A stretch of 64,000 nucleotides of DNA, from contig CASERZ010000005.1 of NCBI GenBank assembly GCA_949290515.1, positions 101,856 to 165,855 of the forward strand, given 5' to 3'. The notes beneath the pieces are model-generated. The model searched no databases. It was given only the letters and a program-made list of their open reading frames with translations, and had not been told where the DNA came from. Positions 47,548 through 64,000 of this stretch are shown here, in pieces; position 1 is the stretch's first letter, and each line of letters opens with the position of its first letter. Origin of the DNA: an uncultured Christensenella sp. GTDB lineage: Bacteria > Bacillota > Clostridia > Christensenellales > UBA3700. The position numbers and the translations under genes are program-made.

Positions 47548-47566
47548 GTTCGGGTAGCTCCCGAAC
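47548..47566 (+). promoter_or_regulatory. 5' leader hairpin upstream of rpsF (possible S6:S18 autoregulatory element)
   Basis: GTTCGGG-TAGCT-CCCGAAC, about 25 nt before the RBS. The functional assignment is inference only. Confidence 0.35.
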
Positions 47567-47591
47567 CATCAGACCAAAAGGAGGTATAAAA

Positions 47592-47873
47592 ATGAACAAG
47601 TACGAATTGTTGTATATCATCGAGAACGAACTTTCCGATGAGGCTAAGCAAGAAGTAGTTGACAAAATGGCTGAGGTTATCACGTCCAACGGCGGTGAAA
47701 TCGAAGGCACTGACAAGTGGGGTACCAAGAAGTACGCTTACCCTATCGACTACAAGACCGAAGGCTACTATGTTTTGGTAAACTTCAGCGCGCCCGCAAA
47801 CGTTCCCGAAGCAATCAAGACTTTCAATCGTAACACCGATGCGCTTGTAAGAAGTATGATTATCAAGAAGTAA
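47592..47873 (+). CDS. rpsF: 30S ribosomal protein S6
   Basis: MNKYELLYII.. WGTKKYAYPI and the rpsF-ssb-rpsR context. Confidence 0.95.
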   Translation: MNKYELLYIIENELSDEAKQEVVDKMAEVITSNGGEIEGTDKWGTKKYAYPIDYKTEGYYVLVNFSAPANVPEAIKTFNRNTDALVRSMIIKK

Positions 47874-47884
47874 GGAGAAAAGCT

Positions 47885-48277
47885 ATGAACAAAGTAATTT
47901 TGATAGGCAATCTTACTCGTGACCCCGAGTCGGGTTCTACCCAGAGCGGAGTACAGTTTTGTAGATTTTCCATTGCCGTAAACCGCAGATTCAGCAGAGA
48001 AAACGAAGCTACCGATTATTTTAATATCGTATGCTGGAGAGCGCTTGCGGAAAACTGCTCCAAGCTTCTTGCAAAGGGCAGAAAAGTCTGTGTATGCGGT
48101 TCTATCCAGACGCGTCAGTACGAGCAGGACGGTATCAAGCGTACGGCATTCGACATAATAGCCGACGAAGTAGAATTCCTCTCGCCCGCTAAGGGAGACG
48201 ACGTAGCGGAACAACCCGCAAAGAAACAGGAGCCTGTAAGCAATCTTACCCCTGTTGAAGACGAATTACCATTCTAA
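47885..48277 (+). CDS. ssb: Single-stranded DNA-binding protein
   Basis: MNKVILIGNLTRDPE OB-fold start and C-terminal DELPF tip. Confidence 0.9.
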   Translation: MNKVILIGNLTRDPESGSTQSGVQFCRFSIAVNRRFSRENEATDYFNIVCWRALAENCSKLLAKGRKVCVCGSIQTRQYEQDGIKRTAFDIIADEVEFLSPAKGDDVAEQPAKKQEPVSNLTPVEDELPF

Positions 48278-48297
48278 TTTAAAAAGGAGACAGAACA

Positions 48298-48552
48298 ATG
48301 GCTGAAGAGAAAGTAGTTAAGCGTCCTGCAGGCAAAAAGCCCGTATCTCGCAAAAAAGTTTGTATTTTCTGTGTTGACAAGATTGACTCTGTAGACTATA
48401 AAGACGTAGCAAAGCTTCGCAAATACATTACCGAAAAGGGTAAAATCGTTCCCAGAAGAATGAGCGGCGTATGCGCTAAGCACCAGAGAATAGTTACCGA
48501 AGCAATCAAGAGAGCAAGAGAAATGGCTTTGCTCCCTTACGTAGCAGAATAA
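48298..48552 (+). CDS. rpsR: 30S ribosomal protein S18
   Basis: [34 protein letters not shown]. Confidence 0.95.
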
Positions 48553-48570
48553 TTGAAAAACCAAAAGACG

Positions 48571-48597
48571 AGAGGTACTGAGTACCTCTCTTTTTTT
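48571..48597 (+). terminator. Rho-independent terminator
   Basis: AGAGGTAC-TGA-GTACCTCT followed by C and T7. Confidence 0.85.
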
Positions 48598-48664
48598 ATG
48601 GACAAAACGCAAGTCCAGCGTTTGTGTTTGTCGGGTATTCGGTTGATTTATAAATCAAACGGTA

Positions 48665-48693
48665 TTGACACGTCCGCACAGAGGTGCTAAACT
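48665..48693 (+). promoter_or_regulatory. Orphan promoter-like element
   Basis: TTGACA, 17 nt, TAAACT. No ORF follows it. Confidence 0.5.
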
Positions 48694-48699
48694 ATAGTT

Positions 48700-48856
48700 A
48701 TAAAAAGCTCCGATAGCGTAAGATAAGAAGTATGCGAAAACTTACCTCAGTATCAATAAGACGTAAGCAATCGGAGAAAAATACTATGTGGGATTAAGAT
48801 TGTATAGCTATCATAATCCAAAAGAAAGACTTCGCTTTGACGAGGTCTTTCTTTTT
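48700..48856 (+). ncRNA. Candidate ~160-nt structured small RNA (unclassified)
   Basis: Bounded by the promoter at 48665-48693 and a terminator at 48823-48856 (AGAAAGACTTCG-CTTTGA-CGAGGTCTTTCT followed by TTTT). A long-range helix is possible between CTCCGAT (48708-14) and ATCGGAG (48770-76). No RBS-led ORF is present. Confidence 0.4.
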
Positions 48857-49139
48857 TGTTTGCTGAGAGAATCTTAAAAATCGGTTTTTGTCAGTTGTCT
48901 GCCGACAAAAAACAACCGACAAATATTGCTTAAAAAATATGGACAAAAAAGGATTAATCACAGTGGCAAAAGATGATAATTGAGCATTGTGACAGATTGA
49001 CGGAAGACGATTCGCGTGAAAAATTTTCCCATTTGACGAGAGGGCTCTAAAGAGAAATTTATGTCGGCGGGGGTTAAAATAGTGCATTTTGCGTATGTAA
49101 AATCAAATATTTTCGTGTACGATTTACAAAAAAAGGGTA

Positions 49140-49168
49140 TTGAAGTTTTATATATATTATGTTATAAT
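49140..49168 (+). promoter_or_regulatory. Candidate promoter of the eight-gene operon (extended -10)
   Basis: TTGAAG, a 17-nt spacer ending in TGT, then TATAAT (extended -10: TGtTATAAT). It lies 55 nt upstream of the GGGAGG RBS and the ATG at 49223. Confidence 0.6.
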
Positions 49169-49222
49169 TACTCTGCGTAACGATTGAGGTAAAATCACAT
49201 AACGTACGCTAAGGGAGGAAAA

Positions 49223-51157
49223 ATGACATCGCTTAAAGTCGCGATAGATTTGGGAAGCGACAAAGTAAAAGTCGCTTTTGCATATAAGGACGGAGAAAAA
49301 GCCGTCTACGGCAAGCTTGCCGACAGAGACGTTACGGGAAGTATCGTGACGCCTGCTATCGCTTATTACGACGAAGAGAGCGGACGCTGGCTCTTCGGCG
49401 AAGACGTCTACCGCGGTACGGACAGACCTTTTATCACGGTAGTAAAAATCAAGACGCTCATATCTCTGCTTATGCGCAGAGAGAACAAGGCCGTTACTTT
49501 GTCAAACCGCGAATTTTACCGCAACGGCTACGATTTTCCCAAGTTTTATTTTCCCGTAAAGAAAAAAAGCTCCGCCGACCTCAAAGAGGCTGTGGATTTG
49601 GATATGACTTTCAAAGGCGACGTTACGCCCGAAAAGGTATGCGAAAGCTTTTTCGTATATCTCGCTCAGCAGATAGTCAATCCCGCAATAATGCGTCTGG
49701 GTAAGGAGCGTAACCTCGAATTTGACGAAGTGGACTATGCTCTGGTGTATCCCGCAAAGGCGGGCAAGGAAGTCGTAGACGAGCTGAAAAGACTTGTCAG
49801 ATACGCTTTCGGCAAATTGCCGCGCACGGTAATTTCGGCTACGAAAGCACTGGGACTGCTTGCATATCACAGAGGCGCGCTTGCGGGCGACGAACAACTC
49901 GTTATAGTAGATATGGGCGAAGAGGATATCTCGGTGGCAAAACTTTCGCTCAACAGCGATAAAACCGTTATCGTCGACGGCGTAGACGGACACAATCAGC
50001 CTATGGATTTGGGCGGCAACGATATCGACTACGCAGTCAGGGATTTTCTCGAAAACGCCGTGTGCGAGAGAGAAACGCCGGGCGTACCTGCAGATATGAA
50101 CGATTTTGTCGCTGAGAGAGGCACTCATTCGGGACAGTTCCTTCTGATGACCGAAATAAAGAAAGCCAAAAACGCGCTTTCTCTTCCTGACGCGGTATAT
50201 GACAGAATATTCGAAAATGGCGTGCCCGTCAGTTTTCTAAGAGACGTGGTGGTACAGCGGAAAATTACGAGAGAGGATTTTTGCGACTGCATAGGCATTA
50301 CTAACGGCGACAAGATAGCGGGTCGTATAGCCGAATACATAATCGAGGAATTGCGCCGCTCGGTAAACGCCAAGGTAGGCAAACTCGTTTTGTCGGGAGG
50401 CGTAACGGAGACTTACGGGATTGTGAGATTTATCAAGCGAGTGCTCAAACAAAACGCCGTCAACGTGCAAGTGATTACTTTCGACGACTATTGCAACAAT
50501 GACGACGGGTTCAATATCCTTTCTTACGAGGATTCTGTTTTCGCGCCTGCGGTAGGCGGTGCGATAGTCGCGCTTAAGGGTTATGAAATCAAGACGGCTG
50601 CCGCGCTTTCGTACGGCACGTGGCAATACCGCAAGAAAGGAGACAAGTATTACAAAATACTCGATATATTCCTCAAAAAAGGACAGATACTTCCTCCCGA
50701 CGGAGGCAAATACTGCGTTTCGTCCTGCCTCAAATATCTCGACAAATGGGAGGGAAAAGTCGTCAACGAAGAGATTTTTTCCACGACCGCTACGGAAACT
50801 TGCGAGATAGGCGAGCCTGACAGCGCGCTCAGACTGAGTATGCAAAAACGCATCGACCTCAAAGTCGTTGCGGGCGGCAAGAGCAAGGGCGCGATTTATA
50901 TCTGTTACAGAGAGAGCGACGGCTCGCTTACGCCCGTACAAATCAAAGGCACGCTTTATTTTGACGAGGGAGTAAGGATTGACGGAGACGGAAGAGCCGT
51001 GCCGTATATCGAAAACAATCTATCAAAAAACGGAGCAAAGAATATTATCAAAATCCGACCGGCAGACAACGTATTCGAGATAAAATACGCCTGCTATAAA
51101 GACATTGTGCTAAGGTTCAGCGGCGTCGACGAATTTGACGTCGAGGGCGGCGATTGA
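49223..51157 (+). CDS. Hsp70/DnaK-like (ASKHA superfamily) ATPase with unique C-terminal domain
   Basis: IDLGSDKVKVAF (phosphate-1), VIVDMGEEDISVAKL (degenerate phosphate-2), DLGGNDIDYAVRDFL (Hsp70 DLGGEDFD-like), LSGGVTETYG (adenosine motif), APAVGGAIVAL. The last ~190 aa look beta-rich. Confidence 0.8.
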   Translation: MTSLKVAIDLGSDKVKVAFAYKDGEKAVYGKLADRDVTGSIVTPAIAYYDEESGRWLFGEDVYRGTDRPFITVVKIKTLISLLMRRENKAVTLSNREFYRNGYDFPKFYFPVKKKSSADLKEAVDLDMTFKGDVTPEKVCESFFVYLAQQIVNPAIMRLGKERNLEFDEVDYALVYPAKAGKEVVDELKRLVRYAFGKLPRTVISATKALGLLAYHRGALAGDEQLVIVDMGEEDISVAKLSLNSDKTVIVDGVDGHNQPMDLGGNDIDYAVRDFLENAVCERETPGVPADMNDFVAERGTHSGQFLLMTEIKKAKNALSLPDAVYDRIFENGVPVSFLRDVVVQRKITREDFCDCIGITNGDKIAGRIAEYIIEELRRSVNAKVGKLVLSGGVTETYGIVRFIKRVLKQNAVNVQVITFDDYCNNDDGFNILSYEDSVFAPAVGGAIVALKGYEIKTAAALSYGTWQYRKKGDKYYKILDIFLKKGQILPPDGGKYCVSSCLKYLDKWEGKVVNEEIFSTTATETCEIGEPDSALRLSMQKRIDLKVVAGGKSKGAIYICYRESDGSLTPVQIKGTLYFDEGVRIDGDGRAVPYIENNLSKNGAKNIIKIRPADNVFEIKYACYKDIVLRFSGVDEFDVEGGD

Positions 51158-51168
51158 CAGGAGGCGAT

Positions 51169-53988
51169 ATGGCTTTGAACAAAAACAAAAAATATACCGT
51201 CACTTGCGTGGACGGAGCGTTTGACAAAGATATTCAGAAATCGGGAATATCGGGAGAAATACGCCCCTATGACGCAAAGATGGCGGAGATGACCAAGTGC
51301 ATAGAGGAGCTAGACCGCTATGACGATTTTGCCGCGCTTAAAATCGAACCCGAAGTATACGAAAAAAGCGGGGACGGAGAGTACGGCATAAAGAGGTCGC
51401 ACGTACATTCGAGCGTCAACAGCCCTCAGGTAATACTAAGACATCAGCAACTTGCCGCTGCGCAGTTTCTCAAGGAATTGAGAGGATTCGGACTTCTTGC
51501 CGACGTAGTGGGAAGCGGAAAGACTTTCGAGGCGTGCACGGTGCTCAGCGAGCTTGCCGTAAGAGGCAAGATGAAGTCGCTTCTCGTAGTAGTGCCCGCG
51601 CAGGTATACGATGACTGGATAGAGGTACTCGAGGAAAAATTCGGGCTGGGCAAAGGCGTGCTTATGAGCGTAAAAACCCCTGATTTCGGGGAGTGCGAGC
51701 ATTTGCGCGAAAGCGGATTTATACATCCCAAACGTCCTGTAATCGTCAAGGCAGAGGACTTTGCGGAGTGGAAGGAAAGCGCGATTAAAAACGTACTTTT
51801 CGACGTGGTGGTCGTAGACGAAGCGCATCACTTGTGCAGCGAAGAGGGCAGATACGCCAAGGCTATGAAACTTCTCTCGCTTATGATGGTTACCAAGAAA
51901 AAAGCCAACAGCACTTACTGCATACTCTTGTCGGCTACGCCTCATTCGGGCAACCTCGACAAGATGTTCAGACTGTGGTATTTCATACGTTGCAAGGGCG
52001 GTAACCCCGACGACTTCGACGAAAAGGACGACAAGGACAGGACGGCAGACTACGCAAAGGAAAAGAAGTACTACAAGGAAAACGTGTGCAGAGGCGCGGA
52101 TACCGTAGCCGAATTCATCACGGCAGTAAAGAAGTACGAGATTGACAACAATTATTCCGAGCAGTTTGCCGAATACCTCAAATCCAAAAAAGAAGAGAAG
52201 AATTTCGCAAACGGAACCGAGGGGGAAAAGCAGATACTGAGAGAGGATTTTCTCAAGGACAACGGACATATACGTGCGGATATACTCAAGCGCGTTGCAA
52301 GCGCTTATCACAACGGCGTATTGCGTACGATAATGATACGTCAGCCCAACGAACTCAGCAAGACCAGATACGTATTCAACCGTTATTTCTTTCCTTTGAA
52401 AAACGACGTGCCCAGAGTTATTCAGGTGCAATTCGACAAGGGTGTAAACGCAGAAGTCGATTTGCAGGAGATTAATTCCGACGGCGCGGTGCGTGCGGAC
52501 GGTAAAGTATATTCCCTTAGAGATTACGCCGAGATGACCGACAAGACGGGAAGAGTACAGGAGAGATATGCCGAGCTTCTCGTGCCCGCGATTTTGGGTG
52601 CTACGGGTTCGTTTGCAGACAAGAGCATATTCGACAAGAAAAACTCTTTGAGATATTACTGGCAGCAGTTTGCGAGAAAGAGTGCGGCAGAGAGTGACAA
52701 CGTATTCAGATTTATGCCCGCTACGGGAGACAGTTACGCATACAAACTAGCCGAACTCAAATATCTTCTCAGCCAACACGCGGGAGAAAGAGTACTCGTA
52801 TTTTTCGACTACGATTTGCCTCGTACCAGCAGAGGATACAGACAGTGGGAAAAAGTCGAAGCCGATTTGCTTGCCGACGAGAAGTTTGCAGGCAGGATAA
52901 TAATCGGCAGAGAAGACGAAAAGCAAAAGGCTATCTCCGACTTTGCAAAGCGCGAAGACGCGGTGCTCGTAGTCGAGGACAGTGCGTTTACCGAAGGCGT
53001 TAACTTGCAGGACAGCAGAATAATAATCAATTTTCAGGTTACGCCCGACCCGCTTGCTATGGACCAGAGAATAGGACGTATATTCCGTCTGGGGCAAGCC
53101 AACGACGTAGTGATTTACTCCTTTGCAGATATGAATAAGCTCGAGGGATTTGCGCTTGCGTATTTCAACACGATAGGACTTTTGTCCAGCAACAGCGGAG
53201 ACGCGACGATTATCGCGGGAAGCAACAACGAGCGTATGGTTGCTCTGAGATGTCCCGCCTGCGGCAAAGTCGCGCTCTATTCCAAGCAAGAGTACGAGTA
53301 CAGAAAGAGAAAAGGACTTCTGTACTGTTTTGCAAAAAAACAATGTATACAGGACGACCCCAAGGGTACGCTTATGGAGGAAATCAACGTCTACGAATTC
53401 AAGTGTTCGACTTGCGATACCGTATTCGCAAGGAGCATAGGAGACGGGGGTTATAAGTGTATATCCAAGACCGAAGGAGAGAGGGGCACGATGTGCAACT
53501 CGGGAGACAAGGGGGACAGAGATTATTATTGCAGCAAGCTGTGCGCAATGTTGCACTGTTCGAGATTCAAGAGCGAGATGGACGGAAAGTGCGCGGTTAT
53601 CAATGCTTACCGCCACAATCCTCACACTACGGCAGTGGAACTCGCTACGCTATGCGCCAATTGCAAATACAAAGCGGGTTGTCCCGCAAAGTGCCGTTTC
53701 GGTACCGACAAGGAAAGCATTACGCAGTGTTCGGTATGCGATTACAGCGAATGCTCGCCCAAACCGCACGTCATATCTTTTGACGAAAAATGGGCGGCGC
53801 GTTGTCCCAAGTGCGAAGACGAGGGCAACAAGGGATATTTGCGTCCCGTCGTAGCGCGTACTTTTGCGGCATACATAAGAGCGGCGTGGGAATTCAAACA
53901 CGACAACGGCGAGTCTTTCTGCGCAAACCTCGAGAAGGAAGCGGACAAGGTAGCCGACATAAGAGAGATGCTCTCTATGGACAGATAA
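51169..53988 (+). CDS. SNF2-family helicase/translocase with C-terminal multi-zinc-ribbon tail
   Basis: Motif I VVGSGKTFEA (51511-51525 encodes GSGKT), motif II VVVDEAHHL, motif III LSATPHSG, EGVNLQ, and motif VI QRIGRIFRLGQ. The last ~245 aa hold 22 Cys, including CPAC, CSTC, CANC, CSVC and CPKC. The start could also be the TTG at 51154. Confidence 0.85.
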   Translation: MALNKNKKYTVTCVDGAFDKDIQKSGISGEIRPYDAKMAEMTKCIEELDRYDDFAALKIEPEVYEKSGDGEYGIKRSHVHSSVNSPQVILRHQQLAAAQFLKELRGFGLLADVVGSGKTFEACTVLSELAVRGKMKSLLVVVPAQVYDDWIEVLEEKFGLGKGVLMSVKTPDFGECEHLRESGFIHPKRPVIVKAEDFAEWKESAIKNVLFDVVVVDEAHHLCSEEGRYAKAMKLLSLMMVTKKKANSTYCILLSATPHSGNLDKMFRLWYFIRCKGGNPDDFDEKDDKDRTADYAKEKKYYKENVCRGADTVAEFITAVKKYEIDNNYSEQFAEYLKSKKEEKNFANGTEGEKQILREDFLKDNGHIRADILKRVASAYHNGVLRTIMIRQPNELSKTRYVFNRYFFPLKNDVPRVIQVQFDKGVNAEVDLQEINSDGAVRADGKVYSLRDYAEMTDKTGRVQERYAELLVPAILGATGSFADKSIFDKKNSLRYYWQQFARKSAAESDNVFRFMPATGDSYAYKLAELKYLLSQHAGERVLVFFDYDLPRTSRGYRQWEKVEADLLADEKFAGRIIIGREDEKQKAISDFAKREDAVLVVEDSAFTEGVNLQDSRIIINFQVTPDPLAMDQRIGRIFRLGQANDVVIYSFADMNKLEGFALAYFNTIGLLSSNSGDATIIAGSNNERMVALRCPACGKVALYSKQEYEYRKRKGLLYCFAKKQCIQDDPKGTLMEEINVYEFKCSTCDTVFARSIGDGGYKCISKTEGERGTMCNSGDKGDRDYYCSKLCAMLHCSRFKSEMDGKCAVINAYRHNPHTTAVELATLCANCKYKAGCPAKCRFGTDKESITQCSVCDYSECSPKPHVISFDEKWAARCPKCEDEGNKGYLRPVVARTFAAYIRAAWEFKHDNGESFCANLEKEADKVADIREMLSMDR

Positions 53989-53998
53989 CGGAGGACGT

Positions 53999-55639
53999 AT
54001 GGCAAAGATATACGTAGGTAACGAATACGCGGGTACTTTCGAAAGCATAGCGAAGATGTATTCGCAAGGATGCGTCCCCGAGGGGCTCATCAAAAGCGCG
54101 GACGCCAACAGAATAGTAACCGCCGCGCAGGAATTCGTATTGACCAAAGGCAGAGGAAAAGCAATGGACGCGGGCGCGGACGCAACGATAGGAGAAGACG
54201 GCGCGTCCTGGTTTGCCGTATTCAGAGGCGCGAAACCCTTAAGTCGCAATGCCGAATGGCTTATGTTCGTGGAGACCGTCAAGGAGTATTTTCACCGCAA
54301 TTATTCGCTTGTGGAATACTGCCCGAGGGATTACAGGCTGAGTGCTGACGAAGCGGCTTTGCAAAAGGAAAACATATCGAGATTTTTGAGATTGTTTTAT
54401 CCGGGTTACGCTTTCGAGATATACAGAGGAGACGAGCAGGAAGGTATTGAAGATATCTACGGCGCGTCGCTGAGAATGGAGCTTACCGACGGCACCGGAG
54501 AGGCTGTACCCGTGCTTGGAAAAGTGTTTTTCAGAAAAACTCCAAAGGGTATACTTGCGTACGGCAAGGACGATGCGGAGGATATAAACAAATATCTTCA
54601 GGCGTTTGACAAACCGCAGGACAACTACGCTTCCAATCAGAACAGCCTAGAGCTTACCGACACGGTGATAGAAGCTCTCGACAGGCTCGTGCACCCCGCA
54701 GAAAGTGCGGAGTATATTCTTGACGATTGCATAATCTTTGCGAGCGACAACGATAAAAAAGCCGTGGAGATTATGGTCGAAAAAGGACCTAACGAAAGAG
54801 TGGATATTCTGTGCGTGAGTATGTCTGTGATGAATATATCGCACGTGAGATGGCAAAACGACAGCTACAATATCCGTCTGGGAGACAAGACCGTCCTCAA
54901 AGCCAACATAGGCATAGGCGGAAAGTTCAATCTGTGGTGCAACAACTGCCGTAAAAAGACCCCTCTCGTGGAGTCGGGCAAAATAAAGTTTTCTTACGGC
55001 GGAAAGAAAAAGCTTTTAGTCATTGATTTGGCGCGCGAGGACTTCGGCATACCTGCCGACATACTTGCGGAGATAAAAGCTAGCGGAGTATTTTCAAAGC
55101 ATATCGTTAAGATTTGTTGCAACGAAAATATACGTCTCGCGGGGGCTTGCGTACGTTACGTCTGCGACGGAGACAGCATTACTCTCGACGACGGTCAAAT
55201 CAAGTGCAAAAACTGTCCTTATCCCGAAGTAACGTTTGCGTGCGAGGACGGAGTTGTGCGCTATACGGCAAATCTGGCTTTTGCCCGCGACAGAATGACG
55301 CTCGTACCCAAAGATAAAGTCGTGGAGTGCGAGTGTTGCAAGCGCAACTTCTACAGCGAGGAGAAAAAGGACGGTTTCGTCTGCGACTTCTGTCGCACGG
55401 CTAAGATAGGCATAGCCGGTATGGATTACTCTGACTACAAAGAGGGCAACAAACTCTATCGCAAGTATGCGGGAATGTTGCCGCTTTCTCTAAGAGTGCA
55501 AAATATAAGAAAACACAAATACTGCAAAGAGGATGAGGATTGCATACTCTTTATTCTCAACAAAACCACGCTCATTTTCTACAAAGAAAAGCTGGGCGAA
55601 AAAGGCTTTTTGCCTTCACCCGAAAAAATAGAATTGTAA
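53999..55639 (+). CDS. Orphan protein with C-terminal CxxC-rich region
   Basis: RBS GGAGGA and a 10-nt gap to the upstream gene. CNNC, CKNC, ECECC and CDFC clusters lie between about 54938 and 55405. No recognisable enzymatic motif. Confidence 0.75.
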   Translation: MAKIYVGNEYAGTFESIAKMYSQGCVPEGLIKSADANRIVTAAQEFVLTKGRGKAMDAGADATIGEDGASWFAVFRGAKPLSRNAEWLMFVETVKEYFHRNYSLVEYCPRDYRLSADEAALQKENISRFLRLFYPGYAFEIYRGDEQEGIEDIYGASLRMELTDGTGEAVPVLGKVFFRKTPKGILAYGKDDAEDINKYLQAFDKPQDNYASNQNSLELTDTVIEALDRLVHPAESAEYILDDCIIFASDNDKKAVEIMVEKGPNERVDILCVSMSVMNISHVRWQNDSYNIRLGDKTVLKANIGIGGKFNLWCNNCRKKTPLVESGKIKFSYGGKKKLLVIDLAREDFGIPADILAEIKASGVFSKHIVKICCNENIRLAGACVRYVCDGDSITLDDGQIKCKNCPYPEVTFACEDGVVRYTANLAFARDRMTLVPKDKVVECECCKRNFYSEEKKDGFVCDFCRTAKIGIAGMDYSDYKEGNKLYRKYAGMLPLSLRVQNIRKHKYCKEDEDCILFILNKTTLIFYKEKLGEKGFLPSPEKIEL

Positions 55640-55649
55640 GGAGGCGGAT

Positions 55650-58600
55650 ATGAATAAGAACGGTATTTTTTCTTCACGCGACGACACCGATTATTCTCAA
55701 AGCACGCTCAGAAGACTGTCCAGTGACAAGATACTGCTTTTGGTATGCGCGGGCATAGCCGCTTTCTGCGATTTGATTACGTTTATAGTCTCGCTGGTGG
55801 CGGGCTACGGCGCGGGGCAGGTAGTGCTGACCGTATTTATGCTTATAGCCGACGGCCTGTTCATAGCGGGAATATGTTTTACCAACTTCCGCTTCAAATA
55901 CTCGCTGGCAGTTTGGATAGGTTACGTAGCCGTATCGTTCGTGCTTTCGTTGATAATGCTCGTAGGCTGTTCGGGCGGGTCAGGCGTTTATACTATGACT
56001 ACGGCGGCAACCGCACTGGTAATTTTGTCGCACCTTATTTTGTGGATAGTGATAGGCGTATGCGCGCTTGCCGACAATTTCTTCCCTCGCAAGTCTTACG
56101 TTAAGATTGTGATTTGCGTAGTTACGGGCTTGGCGGTACTGCTTACTTTTGCATATTCGATATATGTGGCGGACAAGGGCTATTACGGACAAAACGAGGA
56201 CAACAACATCAGAGTAGTTGCATATACCGAGGATTTTGAGCTTGACGGCTACAAAGCCAGCAGCGTAGTGGAAGGAAGAGGAGATAAAATTGTTATACCC
56301 TCTACCTTCAACGGCAAAAAAGTAGTATCCATATCCGCCAATATTCTCAAAGACAAGTCTATCAATAATATAGTAATTGAAGGCAGCGAAATGCTGGAGA
56401 TAAAAGGAATAATGGACGATACGGAAATCTCTCAATCGCTGAGGATAGGAGTTTCCCAACACATTATAGACGCATACAGAGCAAAGCACGCGGCAGATAC
56501 TTCTGATTATTCGCTGACTTTGGTCAACGCTTTTTATCCCGCCGACCTTGAAGAAGACCAAACGTATATCACTTTTGCCTACGAGTGGATGGAAAGCAAT
56601 CTTGTCAGGGGTCAACTTATTCCTACGTGGATAGGCAAGAAGGGCGAAGTATTCAACCTCGAAAGCTATGCTCAGGCAAACAGTATCGCATACGTAAACA
56701 ACAGAAATATGACGGATGACTTAGAGTTGGATTGGAATGTATCCAACAATCTCGGCTATATCTTCAAGAGCGTTACCTTTGACGGCGAGAGCGTGGAAGA
56801 CATAACTGTCGACGAAAGTATCTACAGAGCAAAAGTCAGCTTTGACAGGATTTACAAGGTAGAGATACTCGACGACAACGATACGCTTTACGAGCCTGAC
56901 GAGGACTTCAAAACTATGAATTTGTACGGCAATACTTACGAATACCGTTATGTTGCGGAAAGTCTTGCCAATTCCTTCTTGCAGGAAATATCGAGAGAGG
57001 GATTCAATCTCACGTGGAAGTACGATTACAACGGCGCTACCTACTATGCCGACGATTTATCTAAGGCACTTGCAGAGGGCAAAGTTTCGTTCACAAACGG
57101 AAGAGTTCAGCTTACGCCCGAGTGGCAGCTCAAATCTCCCGTAATCAACGGGGTTACGACCGACAAGGCAAATAATTCGTTTGTATACGGCGACGATATG
57201 ACTTTGAGCGTAGACGCTACCGCTCCCGCACAAGGTTTCAATCTGAGTTACGAATGGAAGGGCGTGACATCCAACCTCGGCACTTCAAAGGATATCCTTT
57301 TGAATTGCGTTACCCCCGACCATACGGGACGATATACGGTAACCGTAACGGCTTCTTCTTCTCAGACTTCGCTCACGTCCGAGGCAACGGCTTATACCGA
57401 CGTGGACGTTGCTAAAAAGATATTGCGTTTTGAATGGACTTTCCCTCAAGACGCGGTATATGACGGTACTTCGCGTCAAGCGGTATGCGAAATAGTAGCG
57501 GCAGACGTAGTCGCAGACGACGTGCTCAATATTGCTACCGATGCGACGGCTGTAAAAGACGCAGGCAATTATTCGAGTAAAGTTACGCTTTTGAGCGGGG
57601 ACAATGCGTCCTATTACGAGATGGACGCAAGCTGTAAATTCTCATACAGCGTAGCAAAACGTTCTCTTACTCTCGTATGGGAGGATAAAGAGTTTACTTA
57701 CAACGGAAATTCGCAGTATCCCTCAGTTGCTTCGCTGACCAACGCGATAGCGGGTGAGGACGATGAAATTTTGTCGGGCATAACCTACTCCAATTACGGC
57801 AAAAACGCAGGTAGCTACAACGTAAGAGCTTCTCTTCCCGCCGACAGCAATTATTCTGTAACGCAGGGCGCGAGCAAGAGTTACTCTATCAATAAGAAGG
57901 AAGTTTCGCTCGTATGGCAGAGCGTGGGCACTTACGTCTACAACGGCTATGCGCAGTATCCCGTCGCTACCGATATTACGGGTACGCTTGACAGCGATAA
58001 GACGGCGGTATTCGCTAATATCGTATATTCCGAATACGGCATAGGCGCGGGAGAATATACGGTCAAGGCAAAACTCGGAGCTGGCTCGTCAAATTACCTG
58101 CTCACGGGCGAGATGCAAAAGACTTACTCGATTGACAAGAAAGCTTTGACAATCAACGCAGTCGCGCAGAATAAGACTTATGACGGCAAGGCGGGCGGAA
58201 GCTTTTCCGTAACTGTTACGGGGCTTGTAGGCAACGATACGGTTGCTTCGCTCGGTACTCCCGTATTTGCGGGCGACGCGGTCAACGCCGTTGACGCGGG
58301 AAGTTATACGCTTTCGGTAAGCTACGCGCAAAACTCAGTCAACAAAAACTATTCTATCAGCTACAATGACGGTACTTTCGTCATTTCTCCCAAGACGGTA
58401 AGCGCGGTATGGTCGTCGCAGAGAGAATTTGTATTTGACGGCAACGGACATTCTCCGTATATCGTTACGCAAGGTACGGAATACGAAAATCAGGCAGTGA
58501 TTAGCTACGAGTACTATACTTCGGACGGACAGAAAGTCGGCTCTCCGATTGAGGAGGGAGAATATTACGTACAGGCAAAATTACAAAGTAAGAATTTTGT

Positions 58601-58652
58601 GTTTACGGGGACGAGCGTAGACTTCAGAATTACGGCACAGGAGGAGGCTTAA
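55650..58652 (+). CDS. Five-TM membrane protein with large extracellular repeat region (BspA-type LRR, Ig-like, five MBG-like repeats)
   Basis: Five hydrophobic helices within residues ~36-190. IVIPSTFNGKKVVSISANILKD..INNIVIEG is LRR-like. TPDHTGRYTVTVTA is Ig-like. There are five ~85-aa repeats with Y[DN]G..Q.P and AG.Y.V cores (about 57411-58640). Confidence 0.8.
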   Translation: MNKNGIFSSRDDTDYSQSTLRRLSSDKILLLVCAGIAAFCDLITFIVSLVAGYGAGQVVLTVFMLIADGLFIAGICFTNFRFKYSLAVWIGYVAVSFVLSLIMLVGCSGGSGVYTMTTAATALVILSHLILWIVIGVCALADNFFPRKSYVKIVICVVTGLAVLLTFAYSIYVADKGYYGQNEDNNIRVVAYTEDFELDGYKASSVVEGRGDKIVIPSTFNGKKVVSISANILKDKSINNIVIEGSEMLEIKGIMDDTEISQSLRIGVSQHIIDAYRAKHAADTSDYSLTLVNAFYPADLEEDQTYITFAYEWMESNLVRGQLIPTWIGKKGEVFNLESYAQANSIAYVNNRNMTDDLELDWNVSNNLGYIFKSVTFDGESVEDITVDESIYRAKVSFDRIYKVEILDDNDTLYEPDEDFKTMNLYGNTYEYRYVAESLANSFLQEISREGFNLTWKYDYNGATYYADDLSKALAEGKVSFTNGRVQLTPEWQLKSPVINGVTTDKANNSFVYGDDMTLSVDATAPAQGFNLSYEWKGVTSNLGTSKDILLNCVTPDHTGRYTVTVTASSSQTSLTSEATAYTDVDVAKKILRFEWTFPQDAVYDGTSRQAVCEIVAADVVADDVLNIATDATAVKDAGNYSSKVTLLSGDNASYYEMDASCKFSYSVAKRSLTLVWEDKEFTYNGNSQYPSVASLTNAIAGEDDEILSGITYSNYGKNAGSYNVRASLPADSNYSVTQGASKSYSINKKEVSLVWQSVGTYVYNGYAQYPVATDITGTLDSDKTAVFANIVYSEYGIGAGEYTVKAKLGAGSSNYLLTGEMQKTYSIDKKALTINAVAQNKTYDGKAGGSFSVTVTGLVGNDTVASLGTPVFAGDAVNAVDAGSYTLSVSYAQNSVNKNYSISYNDGTFVISPKTVSAVWSSQREFVFDGNGHSPYIVTQGTEYENQAVISYEYYTSDGQKVGSPIEEGEYYVQAKLQSKNFVFTGTSVDFRITAQEEA

Positions 58653-58654
58653 TT

Positions 58655-59800
58655 ATGAAATGCGGATATTGCAATACTGAAATAATCAGACCTCTCGAAC
58701 TGTATGACGGCAGATGGTGTTGTCCCAACTGTAAAAAGGACGTATTCCCGGGCGTTGACAGCGAATTTGTGATTGACGCGCTCAACAAGGAACTTTACGT
58801 CAGGTCGGAAGAATATTTTTACAAGTGGCTTACGCGCCGCGACGACGACAAGCAGACGAGATTCAAGTACCTTGACAGAGCAGTAAATCTTTGCAGCGAA
58901 GCGGCTTTCCGTTCGCACCCCGCAGCGCTTATGCGTATGGGATACTATTACGACAACGGCTATATAGATTTTACAAAGAGCGAGGAAGAACGCTGGACGG
59001 TCGCCTACTTCTATTACAAAGCGGTGTGTTTCAACGTGCATAAAAGCGTCGAAACCGCTGACGGAGAGGCGTATGCGGACGAGATAAGAGAAATCAAAGT
59101 CGAGTGCGCAAGGCGTCTTGCAAATATGCTCAAAAAGCCCCCGCGCGCTGTCGGTAAAAAAGGCAGCTTTGACGGCTATGTGGATTTGGACGCTCTGAGA
59201 AAATCAGTACTCGACAAGATAAAGGAGCTCGGCGGAGAATACGACGAGGGAGAATACGTGCTTACAGGCAAACACGATTACGATAATGCCGACGTGGCAT
59301 ACGTGGCGTGGAGGTCGTGTTTTGACGAGGAAAGAGCACCCCTTCTGGGGATATTCAGACTTACCAAACAAGAAGCGCAAAAGTTTTTCAGACCTTTGGG
59401 CAACGGTTACTCCGTACCCGAGAGAATAAGCAGAGATACGCGCCTTAAAATCGCAGAAACTTTCGACGAAAAAGAAGTCGAAGGAAGATTTTACGAATTC
59501 AGAAATTCCGACGCTTTGATAAAGTACGCGGAGGGTTGTCCCGACAACGGTATTTACGTATGCTTTATAAACGGCGCGGGAGGACACAAATATCTCAAAA
59601 AGCGTCAGATAAACGCTTTTGCAAAATGTATGAGCGCGCAAAACAACGCGCATATCAAAAGACTTATATCGGCGAAGAAGTACAATGCGAGTGTATTTTA
59701 CGACGACGACGTTTTCAGATATATGGAAAAGCGTACGTCTATGGAAAAAGCCGTAGAGAAATTCATAAGCGATATATGTGAGGAGGATAAAAATAATTGA
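58655..59800 (+). CDS. N-terminal zinc-ribbon protein with Sel1/TPR-like repeat
   Basis: MKCGYCNTE..WCCPNCKK ribbon. AALMRMGYYYDNGYIDFTKSEEERWTVAYFYYKAV resembles a Sel1 repeat. There is a 2-nt gap to the upstream gene. Confidence 0.75.
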   Translation: MKCGYCNTEIIRPLELYDGRWCCPNCKKDVFPGVDSEFVIDALNKELYVRSEEYFYKWLTRRDDDKQTRFKYLDRAVNLCSEAAFRSHPAALMRMGYYYDNGYIDFTKSEEERWTVAYFYYKAVCFNVHKSVETADGEAYADEIREIKVECARRLANMLKKPPRAVGKKGSFDGYVDLDALRKSVLDKIKELGGEYDEGEYVLTGKHDYDNADVAYVAWRSCFDEERAPLLGIFRLTKQEAQKFFRPLGNGYSVPERISRDTRLKIAETFDEKEVEGRFYEFRNSDALIKYAEGCPDNGIYVCFINGAGGHKYLKKRQINAFAKCMSAQNNAHIKRLISAKKYNASVFYDDDVFRYMEKRTSMEKAVEKFISDICEEDKNN

Positions 59801-61275
59801 TAGAATTAGACGCGCTGATACGCATACTCGACGATAATAAGGTCAATTATGCGAGAAAATTCAAGGATATAGAAGTCAACGGCTATGACAGCAATCAGTG
59901 TCAGCGGCTCTCTTTCGAGATACGCGAGGACATAGAAAGGCTTCTCAAGATAGGTTTTGCAGGCGGTATGGACGTTACGCTCAAAAATTCCATATACGAG
60001 CTTACGGAAATAGCCGTTAAGCTTTCGGGATACAAAGCCGCTTTGAAACTAGACGATTATATCGAAAAGAAAAAGGAAATATTGCACAAATACAGAAATT
60101 ACAAAGGAGATAAAAATATGCCCGATATCAAAAAAGAAGTTATTGCATACATCGACGATTCGCTTGCGGGCGTCAACGCGATGATAATAGAAGAAAAGAG
60201 CGAGTACAAGAAGAGTATTCTCAACGCTTCCAAAGACTTGCTCTCACAGCTCAAGGACAAGGTTAGCAACGTATTCGACAACGTGTCCGTAGATGCTGCG
60301 GACTGCGCGGCTAATCTTTTGGGAGACAGCAAGTACGGCTTGTTTGCGTGGAGAGATTACGTGGGCAGAAATATGGTATTCGATACCGTCAACACGCACC
60401 TCGAGGAAGCAATCTCGGAGGCGGATAAGTGGGCGGAGCTTACCAAGGCGGTCAATAAGCGTAACTACGCAAAGGACAAGGATATAGTCAAGTATACCGA
60501 AGACGTATTTTCCGGTTATTCGCGCGTAGCGGCGGTCAAGGAAAAGGGAGATGCATTCTTCTCCAGACTCAAGGACTTCGAGGAACAATTCGACGTGCAA
60601 AACGAGTCTTACGACAAGGTAAAGCAAATCAACGATGATATTGCCCAGATGCAAAAGGAAATATCAGAGATAATAGACAAGATGGACAACGGCGAAATTC
60701 TCGAAGAAGAGGCGGATTCGCAGATAACGATGCTCGAGCAGGATATCGAAATCCGCGAGATGGAGCGAGAACAGTACCGTTCGAGCATACGTATGATGAA
60801 CAACAATCTGCTTGCTATGCGCAGATTGCTTTCGAAGTTCAAGAGACTCGAGCTTATATACAGAATGTATCAGCAGATAGAGCCCAACCTTTTCTACACA
60901 ATGTTTGAGTATATCGACTTCAGACAGTTCCTCGATATATTGAGTTACGGCGCGAGTGAAGAGGATATAACGATGGCAATAAGCTACTACGACAACATTA
61001 TGGAAAACGTAGCTATGCAGACCAGACATATGGCTGAGACGGACGAGAGATTCGCCAACGTAAACAAGGTTATGGAAAAGGAACAGTCCGTAGTTCACAG
61101 ACAAGAGAACAAGGTGGACAGAGAAAAGGAAAAACAGGAACTCAAAGCACGTATGGAAGCGAGAAGAAAACGCTATGCAGGCAAGACGGCGCAGCCCGCG
61201 TCCGAGCCTGAGAGCAAGCAGGAAAAAGAAGAGCGGCAGGACAACGGCGAAGTACAAATCACGGATATAGTGTGA
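59797..61275 (+). CDS. Coiled-coil protein ending in EVQITDIV (possible ESCRT-III/PspA-like C-terminal half)
   Basis: TTG start overlaps the upstream TGA (TTGA), with GAGGAGGA 9 nt upstream. Long heptad-like helices are followed by a charged, presumably disordered tail and the C-terminal motif at 61249-61272. Confidence 0.75.
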   Translation: MIELDALIRILDDNKVNYARKFKDIEVNGYDSNQCQRLSFEIREDIERLLKIGFAGGMDVTLKNSIYELTEIAVKLSGYKAALKLDDYIEKKKEILHKYRNYKGDKNMPDIKKEVIAYIDDSLAGVNAMIIEEKSEYKKSILNASKDLLSQLKDKVSNVFDNVSVDAADCAANLLGDSKYGLFAWRDYVGRNMVFDTVNTHLEEAISEADKWAELTKAVNKRNYAKDKDIVKYTEDVFSGYSRVAAVKEKGDAFFSRLKDFEEQFDVQNESYDKVKQINDDIAQMQKEISEIIDKMDNGEILEEEADSQITMLEQDIEIREMEREQYRSSIRMMNNNLLAMRRLLSKFKRLELIYRMYQQIEPNLFYTMFEYIDFRQFLDILSYGASEEDITMAISYYDNIMENVAMQTRHMAETDERFANVNKVMEKEQSVVHRQENKVDREKEKQELKARMEARRKRYAGKTAQPASEPESKQEKEERQDNGEVQITDIV

Positions 61276-61299
61276 TAAGATAAGGTCGAAAAGGAGAAT

Positions 61300-62031
61300 A
61301 TGACGATTATGGCAAGAGAAAGACAGAGAGAAAGAGGAGAAAGACTCAACAATCCTTACAGCGAAATGCAAAAGCAGAATATGCGAAAACTCGACAACAA
61401 GATACTCGAGGGCAAGAAGACGGAACTCGAAAAATCCGTCGAAGACCTTGCGCGCAAGGTAGTAGAGAGCGAACACAAGTACGGTCCCGACCACTTCAAC
61501 ACGAGAGTGTTGTCGATGTTTTATACCGTTACGTTCAGTTTACAGAACGTAGTCGGAATGATGTTTTCGATGAAAGAGGCTATGCAGGTGCTTTCGCAGA
61601 CCATCAACATAATGGACGATACCTTCAAGTTTATCGACGAGATGATGAGCCTCGAAAACTACAAGAGATATACCGCGTGGGGAAGGCACAAGCAAAGAAG
61701 CAAAATAAGAAAATTCGTAAAAATGAACAGCAACCGTATGAAAGCCATTATGGATATGATAAAGGGCTACGGAAAGATTGCCGACGCTATGCTTGTTGCT
61801 ATGAGCAGCTTTGATAAAAAGCTCAAAAAATCAATGGAGAAAAAAGGCGGAAAACAAAACGACGTTATGGCGGGCTATCAAAACGAAGCGGCAAAACAGC
61901 TTCAGAAATACCGCGAGGAATATAAGGCAGAAAACGCCGATAGCGCAGATGATTCTAGCGCGCCTTCGGCGGGTGCGGGCGCATCTTCGGGCGCAAGCGA
62001 CGGCGAAATAAATATCGACGATATAGTCTGA
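61300..62031 (+). CDS. Coiled-coil protein ending in EINIDDIV (possible ESCRT-III/Snf7/PspA-like)
   Basis: AAGGAGA RBS. 243 aa: basic N-terminus, four or five predicted helices rich in M/K/E (MKEAMQVLSQTINIMDDTFKFIDEMM), a Ser/Ala/Gly/Asp tail, and the C-terminal motif at 62005-62028. Confidence 0.75.
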   Translation: MTIMARERQRERGERLNNPYSEMQKQNMRKLDNKILEGKKTELEKSVEDLARKVVESEHKYGPDHFNTRVLSMFYTVTFSLQNVVGMMFSMKEAMQVLSQTINIMDDTFKFIDEMMSLENYKRYTAWGRHKQRSKIRKFVKMNSNRMKAIMDMIKGYGKIADAMLVAMSSFDKKLKKSMEKKGGKQNDVMAGYQNEAAKQLQKYREEYKAENADSADDSSAPSAGAGASSGASDGEINIDDIV

Positions 62032-62061
62032 TAATACCTAAGTTATTTATTGAGGACGTTT

Positions 62062-63201
62062 ATGGCAGATAAAACAAAAAAAGAGGGCATAGAAGAGCTC
62101 GAAAAACAGCTTAAAAAAGTTACTGACGAAATACGCGCTATTTTGGGCGGTCGCAAGGATAAAAAGGATTTGTCGGACGATGAGAAAATGCAGCTGAGAG
62201 GCAAGTATTCACAAGCTGCGCAGATATCCCGCACGCTTTCTATGCGTTGCGCCGACAGAGAGCAGAGCGATAAGTACAAGACTTTTTATAAGCAACTCAG
62301 CGACGCGGCGGCAAGTTACGGCTCGGTCATTAAAAGCAAGATTCCCGACACTACGCTCGACGACGTCAAAGGTCTCGACAACGTAAAAGCTTTGGTCAAG
62401 AGCTTTATATTTATGGCTCAGCACCCCGAAATACTCAAGTACTATCATATCGAGGGCGGTCTCGGAATGTTGATGTACGGCGCACCGGGTACAGGTAAAA
62501 CTATGTTTGCCGAAGCCATAGCCAATGCTATGAAGCTGCCTTTGTTCATCGTTACGCCTGCTGATATATTCAAATCCTACGTGGGTGAGTCCGAGCAGGC
62601 AGTAAAACAGATATTCCAGGAAATCGACGCTTGTCCCGACGGCGCGATTTTGTTTGTGGACGAGTGCGAATCTATATTCAGCAAAAGAGGTCAGGATACC
62701 AAGGACTACAAAGCCGCTGTCACGACAGAGCTTTTGCAGCGTATCAACGGTTTCGGCGTAGACGGCTCAAAGCGTATTATGATTGCAGCTACCAACCGTC
62801 CCGACGTAATCGACCCCGCTTATCTCAGATACAAGAGATTTTCTCATCTTGTACACGTTACTCCTCCCGACAAATCGGCTAAGCGCGCAATAATCGAGAG
62901 CAAGCTCAAAGGTATCGCGCTTGTAGGCATTACGGTAGACGATATCGCAGAGGAAACGGAAAAACGTACGCGCGAGAAAATCAAAGGTGCAGAAGTAGTC
63001 ACGTCCTATTATTCCGCCGCTGATATCTGCGGTATAATAGAAGAGGCTTGCCGTCTGGCGCTCGAAGAGATTCAAGCCAACAACAGCAATCAGCCCATAC
63101 CTTTGACAAAGACTATGTTCGATAAAGCTTTCGATAAAATACCGCCCAGCATATCGGCAGAGGTGCTGGATATATACGAAGCCTTTTCTCGAAGAGAATA
63201 G
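62062..63201 (+). CDS. Single-cassette classical-clade AAA+ ATPase (Vps4/spastin/katanin-like) with helical N-domain
   Basis: Walker A GAPGTGKT (62479-62502), SYVGESEQAVKQIF, Walker B ILFVDECE, ATNRPDVIDPAYLRYKRF. The ~95-aa N-terminal region is helical with no TM segment. Confidence 0.85.
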   Translation: MADKTKKEGIEELEKQLKKVTDEIRAILGGRKDKKDLSDDEKMQLRGKYSQAAQISRTLSMRCADREQSDKYKTFYKQLSDAAASYGSVIKSKIPDTTLDDVKGLDNVKALVKSFIFMAQHPEILKYYHIEGGLGMLMYGAPGTGKTMFAEAIANAMKLPLFIVTPADIFKSYVGESEQAVKQIFQEIDACPDGAILFVDECESIFSKRGQDTKDYKAAVTTELLQRINGFGVDGSKRIMIAATNRPDVIDPAYLRYKRFSHLVHVTPPDKSAKRAIIESKLKGIALVGITVDDIAEETEKRTREKIKGAEVVTSYYSAADICGIIEEACRLALEEIQANNSNQPIPLTKTMFDKAFDKIPPSISAEVLDIYEAFSRRE

Positions 63202-63492
63202 GCGACCGCGGAGAGCGGCGCATATTTTGCCTTTATCTGCGACGCTCGCGCTCAGTTACATACGCAAAGTATGCGCCTGTCGCGCTCGGTCTGGAAAAGA
63301 CAAACTCTGCACGGTCGCACGTAGTTAGTAATATATCGGCGCATATTTGCGATTGCTCTCTCACGTACGTCTAGTACGCTCCGCTCGCACAGAGTAGGTA
63401 ATTAACAGATATAGGCGTGTACTAGATGTACGTAACTGCTGCGGGTGCACCGTAGATAAAAGGAAAAGGCGCAACCTTATACAATTGCTTAT

Positions 63493-63533
63493 TAATTTAT
63501 ACAATTTAAGCCTTATGTAAATTGTATAAATTA
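63493..63533. repeat. Perfect hairpin repeat (same as 4512-4552)
   Basis: Identical sequence including the loop AGCCTTATG. Confidence 0.9.
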
Positions 63534-63656
63534 TTATATTATAATACTAATATATTCAGGACTTGCCTATTGCACGCAATTATACATTTGAGGTAAGCAA
63601 AAAAAGATATAAAACTCCGTAAAAGTGCGGGGGAATATTTTATTACTGAATTTCTT

Positions 63657-63690
63657 GCGACCGCAGATATGTGCCAATCTCTGCGGTCGC
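63657..63690 (+). promoter_or_regulatory. Leader hairpin immediately upstream of the transporter RBS
   Basis: GCGACCGCAG, a 14-nt loop, CTGCGGTCGC (perfect 10 bp), then CTATAAGGGG and the ATG at 63705. Confidence 0.6.
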
Positions 63691-63704
63691 CTATAAGGGG
63701 TTTT

Positions 63705-64000
63705 ATGAAACTCAAGCTCAAAGAAAAAATCTTTTACGGTCTCGGAGATTTATCCGCCAACATAATGTTTGCGGCAATCTCTTTCTATCTGCTCTACTTT
63801 TTCGTCAACGTCGGCGGACTTAAACCCGAACTTGCTTCGGCAGTATTTCTGATAGCAAAATTCTGGGATGCCGTTACCGACTATCTGATGGGCAGAATCA
63901 GTGACAAGACAAAGAGCAAATGGGGCAAGCGCAGAGTATATATGCTCTTCGGCGCGGTGCCTTACGGTCTTGCGTTTTTGCTTTTGTGGATCGCGCCTTT
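63705..64000 (+). CDS. GPH-family glycoside/pentoside/hexuronide:cation symporter (N-terminal part; continues past window)
   Basis: KIFYGLGDLSANIMF and WDAVTDYLMGRISDKTKSKWGKRR signature of MelB/XynP-type transporters. Confidence 0.8.
   Translation, partial: MKLKLKEKIFYGLGDLSANIMFAAISFYLLYFFVNVGGLKPELASAVFLIAKFWDAVTDYLMGRISDKTKSKWGKRRVYMLFGAVPYGLAFLLLWIAP

Follow-up and report, generated by a model that had tools for sequence, protein, structure and literature searches.

At the 3′ end of an eight-gene operon (49223–63201), three consecutive genes encode two helical proteins, here called CC1 and CC2, and a classical AAA ATPase. The operon lies in a 64,000-nucleotide (nt) stretch of DNA from an uncultured Christensenella sp. 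(GCA_949290515.1, contig CASERZ010000005.1, positions 101,856 to 165,855 of the forward strand; hereafter the window). The three open reading frames (ORFs) were confirmed to be co-directional on the + strand and encode 492, 243, and 383 amino acids (aa), respectively (Table 1). The complete operon consists of genes for an Hsp70-like ATPase, an SNF2 helicase, the orphan protein p546, a surface protein with five transmembrane (TM) helices and MBG repeats (5TM/MBG), the orphan protein p381, CC1, CC2, and the AAA protein, in that order. The trio is best explained as the 3′ module of a vertically inherited operon in Christensenellales-type gut Clostridia. Our best reading of its function, which we put forward tentatively, is a new, lineage-specific AAA remodeller with tail-bearing helical clients, in which the ATPase is recruited by the C-terminal tips of the clients and disassembles a CC1/CC2 assembly. 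An initial annotation of this DNA had proposed a bacterial ESCRT-III/Vps4-like module; as a functional analogy this proposal is partly supported, as homology it is not.

The distribution of the operon was examined by scanning one genome per GTDB species for loci with a relative of the AAA protein. This search resulted in 186 loci, of which the best 80 were examined, and puts the number of species-level genomes with a conserved operon at 186 or more. AAA identity is 61–99% in the best 80 of the 186 loci, with locus L010 (CALWHJ010000003.1) 99% identical, and these 80 are labelled as Christensenellales-type (Christensenella, Borkfalkia, Coproplasma, Limadaptatus) or as unclassified gut Clostridia/Firmicutes. 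Christensenellales occur widely in the gut and are seldom brought into culture. The CC2 gene is located directly 5′ of the AAA gene in 77 of the 78 loci whose upstream sequence was long enough, and the median distance between the two genes is 16 nt. When loci having more than 9 kb of upstream sequence were considered, a CC1 homologue was found in 67 of 68 and p381 in 60 of 68. The gene order is kept in distant relatives, and an MFS transporter gene is found 3′ of the operon both in the window and in relatives.

Borkfalkia-type operons contain ten genes, namely all eight in the same order plus two genes between CC1 and CC2 that encode p648, with an HExxH motif (H-E-C-F-H), and a 1513-aa SF1 helicase with DUF4011, AAA_11, and AAA_12 domains and an MTES_1575 nuclease-like domain. 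A replacement of the SNF2 helicase by the SF1 helicase was considered and rejected, as locus L092 shows that Borkfalkia-type operons retain the SNF2 gene and gain the other two. This 10-gene version is carried by most related genomes (e.g., L006:2719-9217, and L092, a Borkfalkia avistercoris-type contig). Smaller variations were also observed. In one sub-lineage, represented by L004 and L020, a further orphan gene of 188 aa (L004:10790-11356) lies between CC2 and AAA, which are there separated by 666 nt, and the ~890-nt gap between CC2 and AAA in L085 and L087 may hold another small gene.

The tail architecture that underlies our reading is most evident in CC2. An exhaustive profile search resulted in 162 family representatives at 50% clustering, about 210–290 aa long besides a few truncated fragments. 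Despite a pairwise identity of only ~20%, 136 members share a constant plan, consisting of a helical core, a linker rich in Ser, Gly, Ala, and Pro, and an acidic-hydrophobic C-terminal tip of the form D-I-S/D-D-I-L/V (e.g., DISDIL or NIDDIV). The pattern [IVLFY][DSN]D[IVL][LIVAFT] is present within the last 10 residues of 69 of the 136 members and in 16 of 3058 control windows, a frequency far above chance. An AlphaFold2 (AF2) model of CC2 was calculated from the 136-sequence alignment (predicted local distance difference test, pLDDT, 76.7) and replaced an earlier AF2 model based on 21 sequences (pLDDT 59), for which Foldseek had returned generic BAR domains and helical bundles. In the newer model, a short N-terminal helix is followed by a hairpin with arms of 43 and 53 residues and a conserved YG at its turn, one further long helix, a short helix, and, after residue 213, a disordered tail ending in the terminal peptide. 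The charge is distributed asymmetrically, with +12 over residues 119–180, which include the third long helix, and −7 in the tail. Besides the tip, conservation in the CC2 family is highest in a basic block where the third long helix starts (residues 119–147; family consensus YGFFxRxKxxRxxxKAxRNNxxRM), for which nucleic acid or the acidic tails could be the ligand. Translation of CC2 may start at the second ATG (61309), where orthologues begin with 'MA'.

CC1 is larger, and its Borkfalkia homologue shares 23% identity over the full length. The only similarity between CC1 and CC2 is limited to the last ~10 residues (NGEVQITDIV and DGEINIDDIV, respectively), such that both helical proteins of this genome end in GE(V/I)xIxDIV. 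The CC2-like tip of CC1 is confined to close relatives of this genome. Across the operons, CC1 has a PLSDDDK-like tip exactly where p648 is present, and QI(N/T)DIV or IISTITKK in 8-gene operons. The tips are therefore interpreted as modular docking peptides, because the class of the CC1 tip co-varies with the type of operon; that it changes together with the accessory genes p648 and SF1 hints at a docking code of modular design. Among the lineages in which the CC1 tip class varies, the CC2 tip and the N-domain of the ATPase stay constant. When the CC1 family profile was searched against the PDB, the coiled-coil segment matched generic antiparallel coiled coils only (designed apCC, Smc, the coiled coil of a serine integrase, KIF21A, and the p85 iSH2 domain), and a PDB search with the single sequence of CC1 gave nothing relevant. 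Matches of CC1 to the PADLOC models MkoC and MTase_II (E 0.006-0.009, no passing stretch) were treated as noise.

The third component, the ATPase, contains one PF00004 domain (residues 140–270, E = 1.9e-32) with the motifs GAPGTGKT (Walker A, residues 144–151), KSYVGESE (pore-loop block, 175–182), and FVDECE (Walker B, 202–207), as well as a second region of homology (SRH) that reads ATNRPDVIDPAYLRYKRF (residues 247–264). The motifs and the Pfam match confirm the single AAA cassette, Walker A, GESE block, and Walker B that the initial annotation had recognized in the trio. Judged by these residues, the protein is a catalytically complete single-cassette enzyme in which the Walker A and B motifs, the pore loop, and the arginine fingers are all intact. 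It belongs to the substrate-threading classical clade. Its true start is probably the ATG at 62062 (379 aa), because of a GAGGA ribosome-binding site and because orthologues begin 'MA...'.

Scoring of the AAA core with NCBIfam models gave 153.9 bits for CDC48, 132.1 for PAN, 126.3 for CdvC, 115.7 for FtsH, and 107.5 for IteA, and all 60 listed PDB matches of the core are Cdc48, p97, VAT, AFG2, NVL, or Rix7 (VAT D2, 126 bits). The sequence LRYKRF aligns to LRAGRF of VAT, and the arginine fingers are therefore of the Cdc48-type R-x-x-R spacing. In Vps4, katanin, and spastin, the arginine fingers are adjacent (RR). Both the order of the profile scores and the arginine spacing speak against the earlier placement of the protein in the Vps4–spastin–katanin clade. 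The C-terminus does carry a weak but consistent Vps4_C-like (PF09336) signal, which reaches 19.6 bits in the window protein, under the gathering threshold (GA) of 21.3; of 19 orthologues, 15 have E ≤ 0.01, the lowest value being 1.9e-5. In PDB sequence searches with the last 114 aa, CdvC (4lcb) was the best match (E = 2e-3), and Vps4 (4lgm), katanin, and also AFG2B D2 were retrieved. Moreover, the CdvC profile aligns over residues 87–382 and thus spans the cassette and the C-terminus.

The N-domain of the ATPase had no domain match. An alignment of orthologues contains three conserved helix-like blocks that are MIT-like in size. The MIT Pfam family was not among the recurrent matches of 36 diverse AAA N-domains at E ≤ 10, and neither the N-domain profile nor the single sequence retrieved an MIT-containing chain, or anything else relevant, from the PDB. 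The ~95-aa N-domain of the initial annotation is thus probably helical, and its MIT-like character is not supported at the sequence level; of the Vps4/spastin architecture, the single cassette behind a small N-domain was recovered and an MIT signal was not. In most orthologues, an N-terminal MAGIG(K/R) peptide and a variable spacer precede the three blocks; the peptide is absent from the window protein and its closest relatives, which begin MADKTKK.

In light of the CC2-AAA pairing, the linker and tip architecture, and the Vps4_C-like C-terminus of the ATPase, a mechanism with a polymer or scaffold and a disassemblase is plausible by analogy to ESCRT-III/Vps4 or TRIP13/HORMA. In the remodeller that we propose, the ATPase would form a hexamer. 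The tethered C-terminal tip of CC2 would recruit it, as would CC1 in this genome, where both proteins carry the same tip. Recruitment would most likely occur through the three-helix N-domain; docking of the tip on this domain is the simplest arrangement because the N-domain, like the CC2 tip, stays constant. By threading the flexible tail into its pore, the ATPase may then disassemble or reset the CC1/CC2 assembly, which in turn might link the surface 5TM/MBG protein with the nucleic-acid motors, the SNF2 helicase and the Hsp70-like ATPase.

Several points weigh against this proposal. The tip might instead bind p381 or another operon protein. CC1 and CC2 have no detectable relation to any known polymer, and CC1 was rejected as a paralogue of CC2 (hhalign probability 2.2%). 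Residues 1–18 of CC2, MTIMARERQRERGERLNN, are rich in Arg and Glu without a hydrophobic face, such that there is no amphipathic membrane anchor. Finally, the ATPase matches PADLOC IetA (3.6e-34), NCBIfam IteA (8.3e-31), and the phage family phrog_3757 (3.5e-40).

The last of these points bears on an alternative for the operon as a whole, which we consider possible but on the unlikely side, and which is compatible with the remodelling module proposed above. The operon could be an anti-phage or conflict system in which the 5TM/MBG protein senses, the helicases (SNF2 and, in most lineages, the added SF1 helicase-nuclease) act on invading nucleic acid, and the AAA protein with CC1 and CC2 serves as a regulatory or reset module, similar to TRIP13 in CBASS. 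Consistent with such a role, the SNF2 protein most closely resembles the defence helicases DrmD, BrxH, and DpdE, the ATPase matches TRIP13 models in addition to IetA, and Borkfalkia-type operons gain the large SF1 helicase with its nuclease-like domain together with an HExxH protein. Defence systems typically gain or lose effectors as modules. However, the PADLOC and NCBIfam scores, including those for DrmD and BrxH, are far under the family cut-offs, and no known system matches. The neighbourhood is also one of ordinary housekeeping genes (gltX and rpsF-ssb-rpsR upstream of the operon in the window, rpoB/rpoC and radA near it in L008), and no integrase or transposase was seen among the annotated flanking genes. 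Vertical inheritance, with the gene order and the flanking MFS gene conserved in relatives, argues in the same direction, and the AAA identity among the best 80 of the 186 loci is unusually high for a defence gene.

The ATPase was also compared with its best-scoring relatives. It resembles IetA and phrog_3757 in its length of ~370 aa, and the alignments begin at about residues 45–47, inside the N-domain. In contrast to IetAS, the IteA score of 107.5 bits is far from the cut-off of 510, the operon encodes no serine protease (IetS), and the partners are CC1 and CC2. Cdc48/VAT/p97 (D2) and PAN provide the best-scoring profiles and structures and share the SRH pattern ATNRPD..DPA.LR..RF and a GESE-type pore loop. 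Unlike these proteins, the window ATPase has one cassette and no double-psi barrel or OB/coiled-coil N-domain; its CDC48 score of 154 bits compares with a cut-off of 803, and it has its own ~95-aa helix-like N-domain.

The operon itself matched no entry of the family and defence-system libraries and is undescribed in the literature searched, including PMC10936438, PMC11237479, PMC11090510 (CoCoNuT), and PMC7159879 (conflict systems). CoCoNuT/McrBC and the NTP-dependent conflict systems surveyed by Kaur et al. were rejected as its home, given that no McrB, MoxR-vWA, or GTPase core is present. Bacterial Vps4-like ATPases that were transferred from archaea, bear an MIT domain, and are paired with a TPR+6TM protein have been described (PMC11237479). 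They are similar to the window protein in that a classical AAA enzyme acts next to a membrane protein with no recognizable Snf7 partner; by their description, they differ in the MIT domain, for which there is no signal here, in their partners, and in their operon. ESCRT homologues have been reported as identifiable in archaea and not in bacteria (PMC10936438).

The resemblance to ESCRT-III/Vps4 (CdvB/CdvC) was examined in both its architecture and its sequences. Like ESCRT-III/Vps4, the trio has a single classical cassette behind a small helical N-domain, with a weak Vps4_C-like signal in the C-terminal helix, and the adjacent gene encodes an all-helical partner of ~240 aa. As in ESCRT-III, this partner is predicted to form a long hairpin, its core is basic, and a short conserved peptide terminates its flexible tail. 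The initial annotation had described both coiled-coil proteins as helical with a Ser-Ala-Gly tail and a conserved C-terminal peptide; this description holds for both proteins with respect to the helices and the peptide, and for CC2 with respect to the tail, the tail of CC1 being rich in Lys, Glu, and Gln. The five-TM protein that it had placed next to the trio is in fact encoded two genes upstream of CC1.

Beyond architecture, every homology search linking CC1 and CC2 to ESCRT-III, PspA, or Vipp1 was negative. Snf7 and CdvB were compared through Pfam hidden Markov models (HMMs), and PspA and Vipp1 served as the hhalign references. Neither Snf7 (PF03357) nor PspA_IM30 (PF04012) matched a protein of the window at E ≤ 0.1, and neither was among the recurrent Pfam matches of 136 CC2 and 44 CC1 members at E ≤ 10. 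The CC2 and CC1 profiles retrieved no ESCRT-III, PspA, or Vipp1 chain from the PDB at E ≤ 10, and a single-sequence PDB search with CC2 gave nothing relevant. The hhalign probability was 0.4% for CC2 against PspA of E. coli MG1655, and 0.2% and 1.3% for CC2 and CC1, respectively, against PspA combined with Synechocystis Vipp1. Searching the CC2 model against the PDB with Foldseek, a method that is weak on elongated helical proteins, returned no match with E < 1; the top matches were antiparallel helices of bMERB and KIF21A, and the Asgard ESCRT-IIIB chain 9ftm_F was listed with a non-significant E of 5.4. Nothing significant was found among viral structures (BFVD). PspA and Vipp1 are likewise bacterial, all-helical proteins of ~220–260 aa with a long hairpin; apart from the hhalign values, they are distinguished by the amphipathic N-terminal helix that CC2 lacks, and PspA lacks the S/G/A/P-rich linker and tip.

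Membership of CC1 and CC2 in the ESCRT-III/PspA/Vipp1 superfamily is thus not supported at the sequence level, and, by the conditions for refutation that the initial annotation had itself set out (no ESCRT-III/PspA-like fold, no MIT-like N-domain, and an ATPase outside the Vps4–spastin–katanin clade), the homology claim largely fails. What remains of the likeness is the helix order, the charge asymmetry, and the tethered terminal peptide. MIM1 and MIM2, the MIT-interacting motifs, are unlike the CC2 tip. A machine that has converged on ESCRT-III/Vps4, or diverged from it beyond recognition, is in our estimation improbable; here, CC2 and CC1 would polymerize under the membrane at the 5TM/MBG protein, and the ATPase would recycle them through the D-I-x-D-I-L/V tip, coupling the envelope to the SNF2, SF1, and Hsp70-like motors.

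It is very improbable that the module is a true, extremely diverged ESCRT-III/Vps4 system, with CC2 and the C-terminal half of CC1 as polymers, the tips as MIM equivalents, and the N-domain as an MIT domain. The order of helices in the CC2 model, the basic core and acidic tail, the Vps4_C-like signal in 15 of 19 orthologues with CdvC/Vps4 as the best PDB match of the C-terminus, the 126-bit CdvC alignment across cassette and C-terminus, and the presence of the Asgard chain in the Foldseek list would all fit such an origin. Against it stand the negative Pfam, PDB profile, hhalign, and Foldseek results, the lack of an MIT signal and of an amphipathic alpha0 helix, the order of scores (CDC48 > PAN > CdvC), and the VAT-like R-x-x-R fingers. 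The trio shares its operon with helicase genes instead of genes for ESCRT-I/II or CdvA. Least credible of all is a reading in which CC1 and CC2 are secreted, or are cargo of a chaperone, with type VII-like C-terminal export signals and an EccA-like ATPase: the hairpin with YG at its turn, the signal-like C-terminal peptide, and the polytopic membrane protein of the same operon are in line with it, but the operon has no FtsK/EssC-type ATPase or other translocon component, no WXG100/LXG family is among the recurrent Pfam matches of CC2 members, and the SpoVK, CbbX, and EccA profiles score 24–30 bits on the ATPase versus 154 for CDC48.

In total, three of the operon's products are ATPases (the 10-gene version has a fourth), and four belong to orphan families, p546, p381, CC1, and CC2. 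Under the remodeller reading, CC2 and the ATPase are a clean test case for the possible recruitment of a bacterial classical AAA unfoldase by a tethered C-terminal peptide. Should the two prove to remodel a polymer close to the membrane, bacteria would have an independent counterpart of ESCRT-III/Vps4; should the operon prove to serve in defence, it would be a multi-ATPase system of a new type, equipped with a surface sensor. The negative homology results also indicate that tailed helical proteins encoded beside an AAA gene should not be named ESCRT-III/Vps4 from architecture alone.

Table 1. Genes and sequence features of the operon (window coordinates; genes numbered in operon order)
Feature	Coordinates	Strand	Details
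Promoter-like site ahead of gene 1	49140..49168	+	TTGAAG-17-TATAAT with TG; consensus match only
Gene 1, Hsp70/actin-like (ASKHA) ATPase candidate, 644 aa	49223..51157	+	motifs DLGSDKVKV, VDMGEEDISV, LSGGV; stop overlaps gene 2 start
Gene 2, SNF2-family helicase, 944 aa, Cys-rich (multi CxxC) C-terminal extension	51154..53988	+	PF00176 2e-13, Helicase_C
Gene 3, p546, orphan, Cys-rich C-terminal half	53999..55639	+	conserved in related operons
Gene 4, 5TM/MBG protein, 1000 aa, five N-terminal TM helices and MBG/Ig-like repeats, predicted outward-facing	55650..58652	+	MBG_2 5.8e-12
Gene 5, p381, orphan, N-terminal CxxC...CxxC zinc-ribbon-like motif	58655..59800	+	stop overlaps CC1 start
Gene 6, CC1, acidic helical protein, 492 aa	59797..61275	+	TTG start overlaps p381 stop; GAGGAGG before start
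CC1 coiled-coil segment, ~residues 243–345	60523..60831	+	CC1 alignment profile (A5) against PDB
CC1 charged low-complexity tail (residues 441–483) and tip GEVQITDIV (484–492; 61246–61272)	61117..61272	+
Gene 7, CC2, 243 aa	61300..62031	+	predicted helices 3–14, 19–61, 66–118, 126–180, 188–213
CC2 S/A/G/D-rich linker (residues 214–234) and tip GEINIDDIV (235–243; 62002–62028)	61939..62028	+
Gene 8, classical AAA ATPase, 383 aa from TTG or 379 aa from ATG 62062	62050..63201	+
AAA N-domain, ~95 aa, three conserved helix-like blocks	62062..62343	+	orthologue alignment (A4)
AAA C-terminal helix region, Vps4_C-like signal (residues 332–380)	63043..63189	+	PF09336

The five genes upstream of the trio were annotated in the same manner (Table 1). 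The Hsp70-like assignment of the gene 1 product is based on its motifs, a weak match to BcrAD_BadFG (ASKHA), and the UniRef name 'Hsp70 family' carried by its Borkfalkia homologue (P0337); its family consists of 126 clusters, the named members of which are Clostridia metagenome-assembled genomes and Borkfalkia, and a PDB sequence search with the protein gave no match. The TM segments of gene 4 are hydrophobic stretches read from the sequence, and the 5TM/MBG protein is conserved in related operons. No family in Pfam, NCBIfam, PADLOC, or PHROGs was found for p546, p381, CC1, or CC2. Multiple CxxC zinc-ribbon-like motifs are present in three operon proteins, at the C-terminus of the SNF2 helicase, in the C-terminal half of p546, and at the N-terminus of p381.

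The eight genes are tightly packed, with overlapping stop and start codons in some pairs. Strong terminator-like hairpins at 48570–48590 and 48820–48855 close the upstream rpsF-ssb-rpsR genes. No strong terminator-like site was found inside the operon, where the matches are weak and not more frequent than in shuffled sequence. Between the AAA stop codon and the MFS/GPH-type transporter gene (start near 63706) lies a non-coding spacer of ~500 nt (63202–63700), in which no Rfam family matched and no strong terminator immediately follows the stop codon; an Rfam scan of 46800–64000 identified zero RNA families. The GC content of the operon is 0.45–0.49, slightly above that of much of the window (0.43–0.45), and a dip to 0.38 is seen at 46–48 kb. 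Between 60001 and 62000, purines, above all A, strongly dominate the coding strand (AT skew 0.31, GC skew 0.15), because the helical proteins encoded there are rich in Lys, Glu, and Gln.

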